This document shows, piece after piece, positions 2,562 through 61,478 of a stretch of 64,000 nt of DNA (position 1 is the stretch's first letter; each line of letters opens with the position of its first letter). The notes beneath the pieces are model-generated. The model searched no databases. It saw nothing but the letters and a program-made list of their open reading frames with translations, and was not told the DNA's origin. The position numbers were made by a program, and so were the translations under genes. The DNA is from Escherichia phage A5-4, in the sequence record OP744025, one strand, 5' to 3'.

Positions 2562-3791
2562 ATGCAAGCAACTTATCAACGTATGGACCAAACCATGTTC
2601 AAAAAACGTATCAGTGTTCGTGATATGGAATCACTGATTCGCCTAGGGGCTTCCATCGGAAAGACCGTATTCTTTTTTGGTGGTGCTGGTCTTGGTAAGT
2701 CTGAAAAAGTAAAACAGATCGCTGATTCCATGTTCCCACATCGTGTAGGTAATAACCTTTGTGATGTTCGTCTGTCGGATAAAGAGCCACAAGATATCGC
2801 AGGTATTCCGATTCCGATCTCTTATCCAGATCCGAAAACTGGTAAAGAAGTCACTCGTACCGTATATGCAGTTCCAAACTTTTGGCCTACTGATCCTGAT
2901 TGGGAAGGTATCGTGTTCTTGGATGAACTGCCAAATGCACCATTGGGCACTCAGCACTCTGCATATCAGGTTATTCTTGATCACGTTGCAGGTGAGCATA
3001 AGTTCCCGAAAGGTACTGTGTTTGTAGGTGCAGGTAACCGTGATACTGATGGAGCAGGGACTACTTCTATGCCTGGCCCATTGGTTAACCGTATGATCAT
3101 TGCAGAAGTTGATTATAATCTGGATGTGTGGATCGAAGACTATGCGATTCCGTTCCGTCTGCACCCGAACATTATTGGTTTCTTGAAGCAGTTTCCAGAG
3201 CATTTCTATACTGGTGACGTAGAAAACCGAAGTACTCCGGTTTATTCATCTCCTCGTCAATGGAAAACAGCATCTGACATTCTGTACAAGTATGATGCGG
3301 GTGAGATTAATGAATTTATCGCAGAGGTTGCTCTTGCAGGTACAGTTGGTGAAGGCCTGGAAGTACAGATCCTTGCTTATCATTTACGTGCTAAAGAACT
3401 TCCTCCGATTGAAGATATCTTTAGTGGTGCAGTTGAAGAACATAAACTTGATCGCAGTAAGAACGACCTTGTTTACGTCCTGGCACAAACTGGCCTTCGT
3501 CGCATGGAAGATGAGGTTATGGATAATGACATGACGGATGATAAGTTCCTTGAACGTGCAGGTAACTTCCTTACGTTCATGTACAATAACTATTATGCAA
3601 ACAACAAGGATACAATGATTGCTTTGATCTTGGGCGTGTTCCGTGGTCCAAACGATAAGCCATCTATCCTGACTGTTAACCCGAAACGTCAGAAAATGAT
3701 TCCGCTCATGCGTAAAAGTTGCCCGACTGTTTCTGCCGCAGTTATGGAATACATGACTCGCTATGGTCAACTGATTAAAGAATTCGAATAA
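2562..3791 (+). CDS. MoxR-type AAA+ ATPase (CobS-like)
   Basis: Walker A GGAGLGKS, Walker B VFLDELPNA; 409 aa; paired with VWA protein downstream. Confidence 0.8.
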   Translation: MQATYQRMDQTMFKKRISVRDMESLIRLGASIGKTVFFFGGAGLGKSEKVKQIADSMFPHRVGNNLCDVRLSDKEPQDIAGIPIPISYPDPKTGKEVTRTVYAVPNFWPTDPDWEGIVFLDELPNAPLGTQHSAYQVILDHVAGEHKFPKGTVFVGAGNRDTDGAGTTSMPGPLVNRMIIAEVDYNLDVWIEDYAIPFRLHPNIIGFLKQFPEHFYTGDVENRSTPVYSSPRQWKTASDILYKYDAGEINEFIAEVALAGTVGEGLEVQILAYHLRAKELPPIEDIFSGAVEEHKLDRSKNDLVYVLAQTGLRRMEDEVMDNDMTDDKFLERAGNFLTFMYNNYYANNKDTMIALILGVFRGPNDKPSILTVNPKRQKMIPLMRKSCPTVSAAVMEYMTRYGQLIKEFE

Positions 3792-3795
3792 TCTC

Positions 3796-3824
3796 TTGAC
3801 AACGAAAAACAGTTAACTTAATAT
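3796..3824 (+). promoter_or_regulatory. sigma70-like promoter upstream of HNH gene
   Basis: TTGACA, 17-nt spacer, TAATAT. Confidence 0.55.
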
Positions 3825-3827
3825 AAG

Positions 3828-3854
3828 GGCATCTCGAAAGAGGTGTCCTTTTTT
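3828..3854 (+). terminator. terminator-like hairpin with T6 between promoter and HNH start (possible attenuator)
   Basis: GGGCATCTC-GAAA-GAGGTGTCC stem-loop followed by TTTTTT. Confidence 0.45.
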
Positions 3855-3866
3855 AATTTGGAGAAA

Positions 3867-4361
3867 ATGATGGATTTCATAAAAGAAGGATTTTCTTTCG
3901 ACCCCCTTGCAAAGTTTCTACTAAGGAGAAATGGAAGAGAAGTAGGGAATGTAGTAAAGAATCATAAAGGTTATGATAAAGACTATGTACGTGTAACATG
4001 GTCAAGGGAAAGGAAAAGAAAATCTGCGTATGCTCACAGGATCATTTGGGAATTGCATTATGGCAAGATACCTGATGGTTATTGTATAGACCACATAAAT
4101 GGAGATGGTTTGGATAACAGGATTGAAAACTTAAGATTGGCAACTAAGAGTCAGAATGGTCAAAACAGGAAAAACAACAAGAATAAAAAGGATGGTCTTC
4201 CTAAAGGTGTAGTTATGAATCATGGAAAATACACAGGAAGGGTCTATGTAAATGGAAAAAGGTTACAGAAAATTAGTTCCGACCTTGACGAAATAGTCAA
4301 TTGGTTGGAGAATAAACGTAAAGAAAATCACGGTGTGTTCATGAACAATGGAGAACAATAA
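3867..4361 (+). CDS. HNH homing endonuclease
   Basis: H-x-IDHINGDGLDNRIENLRLAT-x-N HNH signature; sits between the AAA+ and VWA genes; track ORF starts at GTG 3843 inside a hairpin, ATG 3867 with GGAG RBS preferred. Confidence 0.8.
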   Translation: MMDFIKEGFSFDPLAKFLLRRNGREVGNVVKNHKGYDKDYVRVTWSRERKRKSAYAHRIIWELHYGKIPDGYCIDHINGDGLDNRIENLRLATKSQNGQNRKNNKNKKDGLPKGVVMNHGKYTGRVYVNGKRLQKISSDLDEIVNWLENKRKENHGVFMNNGEQ

Positions 4362-5899
4362 TGTCAAAAATTAGTCAAGAAGAAAAAGATATGATCGAAA
4401 TGCAAGTCTTCGAAGCTGAACGTATTATTGAAGCTGCAAGTCTTCAACTTATGCGCTTCAAAGCGTTCTACGGGGTGATGCTTTCGTCTATGCCTGTTAA
4501 AAAGGCGACGGAATGGTGTAGTACAATGGCGACTGATGGACGTAACCTGTATTACCATCCAGAGTTCGTTGCAGGTATGACAGAAGAACGTAAAAAATTG
4601 GTACTTGATCGACTTTCCAAATCTGAGAAAGATCCTAAAAAGCTGAAAGAGGGTATTGAGTTTATCAATGTCTTCTATCGTCGAAAGACTGCTCGTGAGC
4701 TTGCTCTTATTCTTGAGCATGAATGTGATCATGTGATCTCTGATCATGCTTCTCGTGGCAAGGGGTTTAATCACGAACTTTATAATATTGCTGCGGATCA
4801 TCGTATCAATACAACGGCGGTTCTTATTCACCAAAAGGGGGATGAGTTAGGTAAGGCATGGTTCCCTGCCGGAGAAAGAACAGTATTCGATAAGAATGCA
4901 GAATTTGGATTTATGGCCTGGTCTTACTGTGATTTCCGATTCAAAGATATGTATACTGAGCAGATCTATGAAATCCTGAATAAAGAGCAAGATGATAAAG
5001 AAAAATCCAAAGGGAAAGGTTCTGGTTCTGGAAGTGAAGAGGGTGATGGTGAAGAAGGTGGTCAAGGTCGTAAAGGTGTTGATCAGCACATGGATCAGAA
5101 TGGTGATCCAGAAGATTCAGAAGGTGATGGTATCGAAGATGCACTAGGAATCGACCGTAAAGCGAAGCCTAAGCAAACAGCAGAGGAACGCCAGTATAAC
5201 GATGGGGTTATGCGTCGAGCCATTGAGAATGCCGTACAGGCAGCAGGAAGCGGTGCACCGGAAGATGCTCGTCGTTTTGTAGAAGCGGCGGGTAAACCAA
5301 AGATTAATTATCTTCGTTTGTTGCGTAAAACTATTGAACGTCTGTTCAAAGATGATGTATCATATCGTCGTTTGTCACGCCGTAGTCACTCGTTAACTCG
5401 GACTCTTCGTGGCTCGGGTTACTTATCTGGACGACAGACGATTGGTTTACCCTCAAAGAATAAACAGAAGACTATTCGTGCAGGTGTCTTCTTCGACGTA
5501 TCTGGATCATTTAACGATGATCTGTTAAGACCAACAATGCGTGAGATTCGTGGATTGTGTAATCTTTACGATGAGTTTGAAGTTACAATGGCTTGCTGGT
5601 CAACAAAGGTTGGTAACATTGAAACGTATACGAAGAAGAATGTGAATGAGATTGCTAACTACAAGATCAAGACCACATTTGGTACGGATGTTTCTTGTGT
5701 GTTCGAGGCATTAGATGAAATGAAAGACCCTATGGATCAGATCATCATCTACACTGACGGTTACTTTGCTGATGTATCCCAAAAGAAAGATTGGGCCAAA
5801 AAGTATGGTAAGAATGTTCTTTGGATCATCCTGGGTCGTGGGTCTTCGTTCACCCCGCCTTTTGGCAAGGCAATTGATTTTGACAAGTATCTTAAATAA
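4361..5899 (+). CDS. VWA-domain protein with HExxH motif and acidic linker (CobT-like)
   Basis: ILEHECDH zinc-binding-like motif, Gly/Glu/Asp-rich central stretch, C-terminal MIDAS-like FFDVSGSF; TAATG stop/start overlap with HNH gene. Confidence 0.75.
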   Translation: MSKISQEEKDMIEMQVFEAERIIEAASLQLMRFKAFYGVMLSSMPVKKATEWCSTMATDGRNLYYHPEFVAGMTEERKKLVLDRLSKSEKDPKKLKEGIEFINVFYRRKTARELALILEHECDHVISDHASRGKGFNHELYNIAADHRINTTAVLIHQKGDELGKAWFPAGERTVFDKNAEFGFMAWSYCDFRFKDMYTEQIYEILNKEQDDKEKSKGKGSGSGSEEGDGEEGGQGRKGVDQHMDQNGDPEDSEGDGIEDALGIDRKAKPKQTAEERQYNDGVMRRAIENAVQAAGSGAPEDARRFVEAAGKPKINYLRLLRKTIERLFKDDVSYRRLSRRSHSLTRTLRGSGYLSGRQTIGLPSKNKQKTIRAGVFFDVSGSFNDDLLRPTMREIRGLCNLYDEFEVTMACWSTKVGNIETYTKKNVNEIANYKIKTTFGTDVSCVFEALDEMKDPMDQIIIYTDGYFADVSQKKDWAKKYGKNVLWIILGRGSSFTPPFGKAIDFDKYLK

Positions 5900-8034: not shown

Positions 8035-8108
8035 TCACAAAAAGGGGTTGACGGGAGTCGCCCCTTAAGTTAGACTTCAGTTATCGAAACAAAGAGGGGA
8101 AACACATA

Positions 8109-10748: not shown

Positions 10749-10912
10749 ACTTGAGAGGTTTTTCATTTTTGAGATCGTAACCTGAAAACTGTGCACGAGA
10801 ACTTGAGAGGTTTTTCGATACAGGGATTAGGAACTTGATAGCTTTTTCATTTTTGAGTTTGCATTTGAACTTGAGAACTTGAGCTACAGGCCAGATACTT
10901 GAGAGGTTTTTC
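10749..10912. repeat. iteron-like 16-bp direct repeats ACTTGAGAGGTTTTTC
   Basis: copies at 10749, 10801, 10897 plus variant ACTTGATAGCTTTTTC at 10834 and partial ACTTGAGA copies at 10868-10883. Confidence 0.7.
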
Positions 10913-11269
10913 AAATTTCAGTTTCATTTCAAAATTGAAAAATTTTTCATAAGCATAAAAGTATAGAGGTTGTCAAGGTCTTTGATAAGAAATTTTTCAG
11001 GGGGTGAGAATTATTCTCATTTGCAAAATAGCGGGCAGGGGTGGTGATTGCCTCGTGAAACCGTCCTCATCACCGTGAATATATAATAGCACCGTTTTTG
11101 ATTCGAAAGCAACAACATTTTAAAAATATTTTTCGGTAAATTTTAGGCGAGCTACCAGCGATTATAGCTATCGATGCCCTTCGGCTATCATCACCCAAGT
11201 TTAACGCCGTTGGTAGGCGATTGTTTTCCTATGTAGGCATTATGGCCCCTGGCGGGGCCGTTGTCAACA

Positions 11270-13101: not shown

Positions 13102-13163
13102 TATCTTGAGGCCCGTCATTGTACGGGCCTTTTTCTTTTATGAAAATAATTTTGAAAATGTTG

Positions 13164-13289: not shown

Positions 13290-13346
13290 GTTGACACAAA
13301 ATTAAAAACTGTTAAGATGTATCACATACGGCGGCAATAGTGCCGC
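13290..13346 (+). promoter_or_regulatory. promoter + 5' stem-loop cassette
   Basis: TTGACA, 16 nt, TAAGAT, GTATCACAT, hairpin GGCGGCA-ATAG-TGCCGCC. Confidence 0.6.
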
Positions 13347-14801: not shown

Positions 14802-14820
14802 AAGTTTTAATCTAGCGCTA

Positions 14821-14849
14821 TTGACTTAAGCCGATAGTGCTGGCATAAT
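14821..14849 (+). promoter_or_regulatory. sigma70-like early promoter
   Basis: TTGACT, 17 nt, CATAAT; near-duplicate of 15114-15142. Confidence 0.55.
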
Positions 14850-14881
14850 AACTTTTATCAAGAACATCAAAGGAAAGTAAA

Positions 14882-15094: not shown

Positions 15095-15113
15095 AATTAT
15101 TACCACAGTACTA

Positions 15114-15142
15114 TTGACAACTGCTGATAGTACTGACATAAT
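15114..15142 (+). promoter_or_regulatory. sigma70-like early promoter
   Basis: TTGACA, 17 nt, CATAAT, then AACTTTTATCAAG as in 14821 copy. Confidence 0.55.
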
Positions 15143-15185
15143 AACTTTTATCAAGTAGTACAAATCAAAAAGAGAGAATATCATC

Positions 15186-15444: not shown

Positions 15445-15501
15445 TTGACACAAAGAAACAAAACAAGTAAATTAATCACATCAGGCGGGGAATGGCCCCG
15501 C
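15445..15501 (+). promoter_or_regulatory. promoter + 5' stem-loop cassette
   Basis: TTGACA, 17 nt, TAAATT, AATCACATCAGG, hairpin GCGGGG-AATGG-CCCCGC; near-identical to 17565-17621. Confidence 0.6.
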
Positions 15502-17564: not shown

Positions 17565-17621
17565 TTGACTCGAAGAAACAAAACAAGTAAATTAATCACA
17601 TGAGGCGGGGAATGGCCCCGC
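17565..17621 (+). promoter_or_regulatory. promoter + 5' stem-loop cassette
   Basis: duplicate of 15445-15501 cassette. Confidence 0.6.
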
Positions 17622-22366: not shown

Positions 22367-22421
22367 TTGACACTGTAAGTAATTGTGTTAATATTTTTGT
22401 GTAGGGCGGCAATGTTGCCGC
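22367..22421 (+). promoter_or_regulatory. promoter + 5' stem-loop cassette
   Basis: TTGACA, 16 nt, TAATAT, hairpin GCGGCAA-TG-TTGCCGC. Confidence 0.6.
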
Positions 22422-23407: not shown

Positions 23408-23418
23408 GTTCGACAAAA

Positions 23419-23444
23419 GGGCTTGACTTGTTCAGCCCTTTTTT
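23419..23444 (+). terminator. rho-independent terminator
   Basis: GGGCTTGACTTGTTCAGCCC followed by TTTTTT. Confidence 0.7.
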
Positions 23445-23584
23445 GCTATTCTTATCAAACGGGCGGCACCTGGGAACAGGGGGGAGGTAATCACTGGACG
23501 ACTCCGCTATATAGTGATAGTAAATAGCTATCAATAATCTCCAAAAATAAAATAAAACCTATCGAGTCTTTACAATTCTTTCTA

Positions 23585-46393: not shown

Positions 46394-46400
46394 TTTAAAT

Positions 46401-55413: not shown

Positions 55414-55433
55414 AACCGCCCCGAAGGGCGGTT
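55414..55433 (-). terminator. terminator hairpin AACCGCCCCGAAGGGCGGTT (copy 1)
   Basis: perfect 8-bp stem, CGAA loop, T-run on minus strand; identical copies at 55639 and 61459. Confidence 0.65.
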
Positions 55434-59799: not shown

Positions 59800-60006
59800 T
59801 TAATTTAAATCTTCAACAAATTGTGGCAAGTAATCTTCAATTGGGCTACTCAAATCATTTTCTCTTACAATTTCCAAGTTAGCAAGTCTTTTCTTTGCCA
59901 AGTAAGAAATAAATTCCTTAGTATCTACCCTGTGTCCTTCTAGTGCCAACTTACCGTCAATATAAACACCTTCCCAATCTTCACCTTCGAAAAATACTAT
60001 TTTCAT
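59800..60006 (-). CDS. hypothetical protein
   Basis: ORF track. Confidence 0.5.
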   Translation of the reverse strand: MKIVFFEGEDWEGVYIDGKLALEGHRVDTKEFISYLAKKRLANLEIVRENDLSSPIEDYLPQFVEDLN

Positions 60007-61458: not shown

Positions 61459-61478
61459 AACCGCCCCGAAGGGCGGTT
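61459..61478 (-). terminator. terminator hairpin AACCGCCCCGAAGGGCGGTT (copy 3)
   Basis: followed by T6 on minus strand, 30 nt upstream of dNMP kinase start. Confidence 0.65.

Follow-up and report, generated by a model that had tools for sequence, protein, structure and literature searches.

In Escherichia phage A5-4, an rV5-like coliphage, the short gap between a MoxR-type ATPase gene and a VWA/DUF2201 gene probably holds a composite terminator-promoter element, which would stop incoming transcription and restart it. The DNA analysed is a stretch of 64,000 nucleotides (nt) of sequence record OP744025 (hereafter, the window), in which an HNH homing endonuclease gene now stands between the element and the VWA gene. 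In the model that we propose, host RNA polymerase arriving from upstream promoters (e.g., TTGACT-N16-TATACT at 2504) would transcribe a complete hairpin with its U-tract and terminate, and a sigma70-type promoter, TTGACA-N17-TAATAT, would initiate at about A3831, within the 5' arm of that same hairpin. Transcripts from the embedded promoter would lack the 5' arm, would form no terminator and would continue past the Shine-Dalgarno (SD) sequence into the downstream genes. The element would in this way uncouple downstream expression from upstream transcription within 75 nt, and polymerases terminating approximately 20 nt downstream of +1 would probably also occlude the promoter or be recycled onto it.

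The signals listed in the preliminary description of this site, namely a TTGACA-N17-TAATAT promoter, a hairpin with a GAAA loop, a T6 run, a GGAG and an ATG, are all present where they had been placed. The two hexamers, located by sequence and by a consensus scan, occupy 3796-3801 and 3819-3824 on the plus strand and match the consensus at 10 of 12 positions; the second base of the -10 hexamer is A and its sixth is T, and the -35/-10 spacing is within 17 +/- 1 nt. The scan also calls the hairpin (3825-3850, plus strand), which consists of a 5' arm, AAGGGCATCTC (3825-3835), the loop GAAA (3836-3839) and a 3' arm, GAGGTGTCCTT (3840-3850), forming a stem of 11 pairs that includes two G.U pairs (3829.3846 and 3832.3843). 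The T6 run spans 3849-3854 and is followed by AATTT, the GGAG at 3860-3863 and an ATG at 3867, repeated at 3870. With the last base of the -10 hexamer at 3824 and the first of the hairpin at 3825, 0 nt lie between the two. The full hairpin folds at -16.5 kcal/mol (z = -5.8), with none of 200 shuffled sequences folding as well, and has a terminator d-score of 27.5, a score of the d'Aubenton-Carafa type. The GC-rich stem and the T-tract read in the direction of the upstream gene; on the minus strand, the stem is not followed by a T-tract. The features of the locus are as follows.

2562-3791, plus strand: upstream ATPase gene, MoxR-type, 409 amino acids (open reading frame; phrog_1297 ATPase, E = 2.8e-100).
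3789-3791, plus strand: stop codon TAA of the ATPase gene (sequence).
3796-3801, plus strand: -35 hexamer TTGACA (sequence, scan, conserved spacing).
3819-3824, plus strand: -10 hexamer TAATAT, abutting the hairpin (sequence, scan, alignment).
3825-3850, plus strand: putative terminator hairpin, AAGGGCATCTC-GAAA-GAGGTGTCCTT (folding, covariation).
3829-3833, plus strand: predicted transcription start, most likely A3831, within the 5' arm (sigma70 spacing rule).
3849-3859, plus strand: T-tract TTTTTTAATTT, where the 3' ends of upstream transcripts are predicted (sequence).
3860-3863, plus strand: SD sequence GGAG, the resident SD of the VWA gene, now serving the HNH gene (identical in HNH-less relatives).
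3867-4361, plus strand: HNH homing endonuclease gene, a later insertion (Pfam HNH_3; absent from four relatives).
4350-4353, plus strand: replacement SD sequence GGAG for the VWA gene, in the 3' end of the HNH gene (sequence).
4361-4460, plus strand: diverged flank beside the HNH insertion, a homing scar or probable target region (identity to HNH-less relatives).
4361-5899, plus strand: VWA/DUF2201 gene, the original conserved target of the promoter (Pfam DUF2201_N and DUF2201).

Folding of 3792-3872 gave a single hairpin and no alternative antiterminator fold. An Rfam search of the window returned no family at threshold; the best sub-threshold match, SIB_RNA on 3796-3853, was dismissed, its 20 bits falling well short of the cutoff of 56.

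The proposed mechanism turns on where the promoter starts. Initiation at sigma70 promoters occurs approximately 7 nt beyond the end of the -10 hexamer, preferably at a pyrimidine-purine step. Because the -10 hexamer abuts the hairpin, a start approximately 7 nt on falls inside the 5' arm, and the seventh base in the window is A3831. In 11 of the 13 lineages compared below, this position is occupied by the A of a CATC that is conserved within the 5' arm, the exceptions being L013, where the A is the sixth base, and 24-2-1, where the sixth base is G. From the general spacing rule, together with the conserved C-A at positions 6-7, we infer a start at about A3831, within the range 3829-3833. No alternative promoter register that would place +1 upstream of 3825 was found; TAACTT at 3814-3819 has no -35 hexamer. 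An RNA beginning at A3831 retains a 5-bp stub, AUCUC/GAGGU, with GUCC (4 nt) before the U-tract; its folding energy, -7.3 kcal/mol (z = -0.7), is in the range of shuffled sequence, and its d-score is -65.7. With this geometry, read-in transcripts would be terminated and those of the promoter itself are predicted to be immune. Two further roles for the truncated RNA were considered and rejected: a stabilising 5'-terminal hairpin on the promoter's own transcripts, as the 5-bp stub shrinks to 3 bp in Certrevirus and is not conserved, and pairing of the 5' UCUC with the SD sequence, which is not significant (z = -0.7).

Close relatives reveal which gene the element belongs to. The window shares 99% identity with Escherichia phage A7_1, which belongs to the Vequintavirinae (rV5-like myoviruses) and is otherwise unclassified; gene order in the window, on the plus strand, is the MoxR-type ATPase (2562-3791), the HNH_3 protein (3867-4361) and the DUF2201/VWA protein (4361-5899); the gene corresponding to the first of these is annotated as a MoxR ATPase in UPEC06, CB7 and phiTE. 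The HNH gene is missing in four close relatives, LTH01, A73, W70 and UPEC06. Promoter, hairpin, T-tract and GGAG are 100% identical across six aligned genomes, and in those that lack the HNH gene the element leads directly into the VWA gene, with the SD sequence 8 nt before the VWA ATG. Alignment with the HNH-less relatives places the start of the HNH block precisely after GGAGAAAATGA. Since the element is identical before the VWA gene in these relatives, it is a resident intergenic signal of the ATPase/VWA pair, and the alignment indicates that the HNH gene arrived later, inserting between the SD sequence already present and the VWA start codon and borrowing both promoter and SD. The preliminary description had proposed, as one of two options, that the hairpin ends the ATPase transcript and that the HNH gene uses its own promoter. 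Termination followed by a restart is favoured by the geometry and the conservation of the element; the promoter, which precedes the VWA gene in HNH-less relatives, as an equivalent one does in distant genera, is not the HNH gene's own. The logic of the annotation is corrected to that extent: the signals belong to the conserved ATPase/VWA gene pair and not to the mobile HNH gene.

The layout extends well beyond this clade. Relatives of the VWA gene were found in 335 phage records, and the regions upstream of the gene were compared among representatives of several genera and IMG/VR contigs. Thirteen phages from six lineages, comprising this clade, Certrevirus (CR8, CR9, F4M1E and L013), Seunavirus (PVP-SE1, GAP31, 4MG and L014), Henunavirus, Mydovirus (Mydo and KPP-1) and Avunavirus (24-2-1), share a common order of a -35 hexamer, a 16-17 nt spacer, a -10 hexamer, a hairpin with T-tract 0-1 nt further on, an SD sequence and an ATG. 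The -35-like hexamers are TTGACA, TTGCAA, TTGCAT, TTGATC or TTTACA, and the -10 hexamers TATAAT, TAAAAT, TATACT, TAGAAT, TATAGT or TAATAT; the hairpins have 7-10 bp and loops of 3-6 nt, and the sequences of both spacer and loop differ. When the alignment is anchored on the -10 hexamer, information is highest at -35 and -10 and low in the spacer, and T1, A2 and T6 of the -10 are invariant in 11 aligned lineages. A run of T4-T6 directly follows the stem in 10 of the 13 promoter-bearing lineages and follows after one A in L013 and 24-2-1, F4M1E being ambiguous. The d-scores of the other promoter-bearing lineages are 18-33, except in 24-2-1 (-13.9 as scored), which has the one A between stem and T-run.

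The hairpin is also maintained as an RNA structure. In the 13-sequence alignment of the stem, 96.6% of cells are paired, and four of the nine stem pairs have changed on both sides; of 500 shuffles, just 3 have as many. Covariation scored 0.315 versus 0.166 in shuffles, with none of 500 reaching 0.315, and controls in which the alignment was slid gave at most 0.127. One stem position switches between U.G and C-G; this variation and the two G.U pairs of the window fit pairing in plus-strand RNA only. The junction between hairpin and VWA gene is kept in all lineages compared; the ATPase gene lies directly upstream in this clade and in Certrevirus, one or two small open reading frames intervene in the other genera, and the sole insertion at the junction is the HNH gene, downstream of the SD sequence. 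A terminator was marked at this position independently by the annotators of Murica and of phiTE. To judge from these alignments, it is the conservation of promoter and hairpin in combination, across lineages, that makes the element significant.

The promoter itself has company in the genome. In the early region (1-27,100, plus strand), 34 strict matches, defined as TTGACA (at least 5 of 6)-N16-18-TAnnnT, were found, 27 of them intergenic although approximately 62% of the region is coding, and at least two of the seven apparently coding matches are artefacts of rough calls of open reading frames. TAATAT is also the -10 hexamer of three further intergenic promoters, at 22367, 22866 and 25155. 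Early promoters resembling those of sigma70 have been described in the Certrevirus and rV5 genome papers (PMC7344957, PMC3606486).

Several observations weigh against a composite element. Promoter-like sites number 28 in 12 kb versus 31.4 expected in shuffles, so that a match of this kind occurs at chance frequency and the promoter call cannot rest on the match alone. The primary sequence of the stem is fairly conserved (GGYCATC...GATGRCC), which makes the covariation modest. In the Pectobacterium phages CB7 and phiTE, the hairpin-abutting -10 has been lost and a weaker GATCAT is left within the 5' arm, the variant reading TTGACA-N17-GATCAT inside AAGGATCATC. As regards its position, the start is taken from the general spacing rule, and a literature search on transcript mapping in Vequintavirinae found nothing relevant. 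A -10 hexamer abuts the terminator in 3 of 36 terminators of this phage and 2 of 48 in CR9, versus approximately 0.1 expected, which suggests a genome-wide excess of such promoters, albeit a soft one.

Other sites of this kind were inspected individually. Of the three -10-abutting terminators in this phage, the one at 55433 (minus strand) is not conserved in CR9 and was rejected as probably due to chance; there, both the window and the homologous CR9 spacer have an ordinary promoter downstream of the terminator, and the upstream match lies in coding sequence. A promoter-like TTGACG-N17-GAGAAT (4285-4313, 9 of 12) in the 3' end of the HNH gene is at chance level, is not conserved in CB7 and was likewise discarded. 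Outside the window, a candidate second copy of the element lies in A7_1 at about 59890-59960 on the minus strand (around 59922), where TTGACT-N17-TAATAT abuts ACCCCTATC-CTAACC-GATGGGGGT, followed by TTTACTTT and an ATG; the seventh base after its -10 is A, and its -35 and spacer are within coding sequence. In the window, two other hairpins containing a -35 hexamer were noted at 8044-8068 and 23417-23445 (plus strand). The hairpin AAGGGGTTGACGGGAGTCGCCCCTT carries TTGACG-N17-TAGACT and has a T-tract on the minus strand, and the hairpin AAAAGGGCTTGACTTGTTCAGCCCTTTTTT carries TTGACT-N18-TATTCT; these are putative further terminator-promoter overlaps in a different register.

The alternative that holds up best, though we consider it unlikely, is that the site is a terminator and nothing else: hairpin and T-tract would set the ratio of ATPase to VWA expression, the promoter match would be fortuitous and inactive, and the downstream genes would need read-through. 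The chance frequency of promoter-like matches and the loss of the abutting -10 in CB7 and phiTE both fit this view, as do the rV5-type phages (Murica and L015-L017), which keep the hairpin before the VWA gene and have no recognisable promoter there. However, 13 phages of six lineages hold the -35 and -10 hexamers a fixed distance apart despite divergence of the intervening sequence, and the same hexamer types occur in approximately 27 other intergenic early promoters of this phage. Strength of the T-tract also follows the promoter: the lineages that bear the promoter are those with strong T-tracts, whereas the promoterless rV5-type hairpins are followed by only TTCT or TTT and have d-scores of -2.3 and 6.0. 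In those few lineages, which have no restart promoter, a weak terminator would let read-through supply the VWA gene.

Two alternatives appear very unlikely, and to a similar degree. The first was the other option of the preliminary description, a promoter-proximal attenuator, in which transcripts from the promoter would contain the whole hairpin and mostly stop at the T-tract, keeping expression of HNH (and VWA) at a low level. The promoter indeed adjoins the hairpin and its T-tract on one strand, and homing endonucleases are often held at low expression. This reading is not borne out by the geometry, as the absence of any nucleotide between -10 and hairpin puts a normal start in the 5' arm, and the RNA from 3831 lacks significant structure, its d-score being -65.7. 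The element offers neither a leader or leader peptide nor an antiterminator alternative; moreover, it is older than the HNH insertion and, in phages without the HNH gene, serves the VWA gene. The second is that the hairpin acts mainly as a boundary for RNase III or RNase E, or as a protector of the 3' end of the ATPase mRNA. In its favour, rV5-type phages, whose T-tract is too weak to terminate efficiently, retain the hairpin as well, and many other early transcripts of this phage have GC-rich hairpins without T-tracts. Against it stand the T4-T6 runs, which adjoin the stem in 10 of the 13 promoter-bearing lineages and are one A away from it in two more, and d-scores of 18-33 that are typical of terminators. 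A processing function is compatible with termination and secondary to it. Least credible of all, and rejected, is a DNA operator, an inverted repeat around +1 binding a dimeric phage or host repressor of the promoter with the RNA hairpin incidental, for although the half-sites GGYCATC and GATGRCC are fairly conserved and lie at -6 to +20, a typical position for a repressor, their spacing varies from 3 to 6 nt with the loop, G.U pairs (in the window and 24-2-1) and the variation from U.G to C-G keep RNA pairing while breaking DNA symmetry, the stem of 24-2-1 differs in sequence yet still pairs, and the T-tract comes directly after the stem or after one A in nearly all lineages.

The inserted HNH gene encodes a protein with a Pfam HNH_3 domain (E = 3.2e-23) that also matches phrog_99 (E = 6e-44). 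Its closest homologues, with 68% amino acid identity, are CB7_109 of CB7 and phiTE_059 of phiTE, which occupy the same site in the order ATPase, terminator, HNH, VWA; a homologue in PcCB7V (67%) is at the same site by DNA position only. Degraded copies are found at this site in Pectobacterium phages DU_PP_I and DU_PP_IV. In DU_PP_IV (1179-1584 of the stretch examined), and also in DU_PP_I, the gene is split into two small open reading frames, the picture of a decaying homing endonuclease.

The insertion brings its own provision for the gene that it displaces. The 3' end of the HNH gene supplies a new SD sequence for the VWA gene (GGAG, 4350-4353), with GGAGG at the equivalent place in CB7 and phiTE, and the HNH stop codon overlaps the VWA start codon by one base (TAATG). 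The 131 nt aligned directly upstream of the insertion are identical to the HNH-less relatives. The first 100 nt of the VWA gene (4361-4460) are 72-82% identical to those relatives, versus mostly 86-100% per 50-nt bin elsewhere, and the N-terminus of the protein reads MSKISQEEKD in the window versus MAKLTIEESN in the relatives without the HNH gene. This diverged flank is probably where the HNH endonuclease has its homing target, or else a tract of co-conversion with the HNH gene. Taken together, these marks, which are those usually left by a homing endonuclease with a target adjoining the insertion point, make the HNH gene a putative free-standing, site-specific homing endonuclease. The locus illustrates how such a gene can enter a genome and leave the expression of host genes intact, by borrowing a promoter and SD sequence and supplying a replacement SD.

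A more ambitious version of the stop-and-restart proposal, which we regard as possible but doubtful, is that the whole arrangement is a selected design. A restart promoter would be built into the terminator, its start hidden in the 5' arm so that its transcripts escape termination, released polymerase would be recaptured in termination-coupled re-initiation that buffers downstream expression, and the block from promoter to SD sequence would offer a safe landing site to a dedicated HNH family across genera. In its plainer form, the stop-and-restart proposal predicts that whether a terminator acts on a given transcript depends on where the start site lies relative to the stem and requires no further factor. 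As biology this holds no surprise; its practical value lies in a compact, natural insulator part of 60 nt for E. coli.

A separate annotation problem concerns the VWA/DUF2201 gene. In the RefSeq records of PVP-SE1, pEp_SNUABM_01, GAP31 and 4MG, this gene is labelled 'HNH endonuclease', as is a gene further upstream described as 'similar to rV5 anti-sigma factor', and small neighbours are labelled 'tail protein'; the PHROG family phrog_1314 has the same HNH label. Since Pfam assigns only DUF2201_N and DUF2201 to the VWA gene, the HNH label on that gene looks like a propagated mis-annotation.

Other regulatory sequences were observed elsewhere in the window. Between 12282 and 25234 (plus strand), approximately 15-18 early promoters of the form TTGACA-N16/17-TAnnnT each have a GC-rich hairpin 10-12 nt after the -10, at roughly +4 to +6 of the transcript, without a T-tract and followed by an A-rich leader and an SD sequence (e.g., at 13291-13345, 15445-15500, 17565-17615 and 22367-22420; one example is GGCGGGGAATGGCCCCGC). 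These hairpins, which are much rarer in CR9, are perhaps 5'-terminal stem-loops on early mRNAs that serve as stabilisers, processing sites or regulatory sites. At 14815-14850 and 15110-15145 (plus strand), an 11-bp inverted repeat straddles the -35 of two promoters (TAGCGCTATTGAC...GATAGTGCTGGCATAAT and CAGTACTATTGAC...GATAGTACTGACATAAT), providing candidate operators. At about 10750-10960 (plus strand), within a non-coding stretch of 1.1 kb, GAACTTGAGAGGTTTTTC and variants of it recur four to five times as direct repeats, an iteron-like arrangement that might indicate an origin or a regulatory array. On the minus strand, an identical hairpin, AACCGCCCTTCGGGGCGGTT, occurs three times in the nucleotide-metabolism region (nrdA/nrdB), starting at 61478, 55433 and about 55655, twice with T6 and once directly before an SD sequence, and is also present in CR9. 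Two minus-strand terminators, at 46395 and 30194, have unusually long T-runs of T17 and T12.

Compared with known arrangements, the element performs the same function as the canonical terminator-then-promoter of early phage regions, that is, to end one transcript and start the next. This phage has the canonical form as well, at 13108/13164, 25130/25155 and 55433/55400 (minus strand). There, the promoter lies downstream of the terminator and its transcripts never meet the hairpin, whereas here the order is reversed, the signals overlap and the predicted immunity needs a start inside the stem. With attenuators and leader terminators the element has in common a promoter and an intrinsic terminator before the first gene. 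The leader of an attenuator, however, holds the whole terminator together with a competing structure or sensor, whereas here no leader precedes the hairpin and no alternative fold exists.

The insertion, in turn, resembles the free-standing HNH genes of large phages, of which 21 are present in Pectobacterium phage CB7 (PMC7344957). Shared features are the HNH_3 domain, presence or absence at a precise intergenic site among near-identical genomes, occupation of the same site in distant relatives, a diverged target flank and a replacement SD sequence. Only the diverged 100-nt flank hints at the target of site-specific cleavage by the HNH protein.

The closest known counterpart is the tufB-secE overlap of terminator and promoter in enterobacteria described by Brandis et al., who showed that a terminator loaded with polymerase reduces initiation at the promoter it overlaps (PMC6735719). 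In the tufB-secE spacer of E. coli K-12, TAA is followed by 13 nt and TTGACG-N18-CATCAT, with the -10 inside a hairpin, AAAAGGGCATCATTTGATGCCCTTTTT, that folds at -21.1 kcal/mol; as both -10 and start are inside the hairpin, read-in transcripts can terminate and the promoter's own cannot. Both there and in the phage, the spacer is very short, and in it the upstream unit's intrinsic terminator and the sigma70 promoter of the following unit overlap on one strand, with the -35 upstream of the hairpin and the start site, predicted in the phage, inside it. Gene order is conserved in both, and the sole insertion in the phages, the HNH gene, is downstream of the promoter, the location at which neutral insertions are predicted for an overlapping promoter (PMC6735719). 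Both hairpins contain AAGGGCATC, a similarity that could be due to chance or to the two having converged on a CATC motif for the start or the -10. A stem closed by A/T pairs and a T-tract are also common to the tufB terminator AAAAGGGCATCATTTGATGCCCTTTTT (93-140 of the K-12 spacer stretch) and 3825-3850 of the window.

The two systems differ in that one is a phage locus and the other a chromosomal supercluster of ribosomal and translation genes. The phage -10 abuts the hairpin, whereas the tufB-secE -10 is inside it, and the CB7/phiTE variant, with its -10 inside, is the closer match. Promoter occlusion by polymerase load was demonstrated experimentally for tufB-secE, whereas the phage element is known from sequence. 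Combined terminator-promoters and the recycling of polymerase are also treated in a recent preprint. By analogy with these systems, the element would belong to an already known class of terminator-promoter overlaps, of which it is a clear phage example, conserved in at least six lineages of Vequintavirinae.

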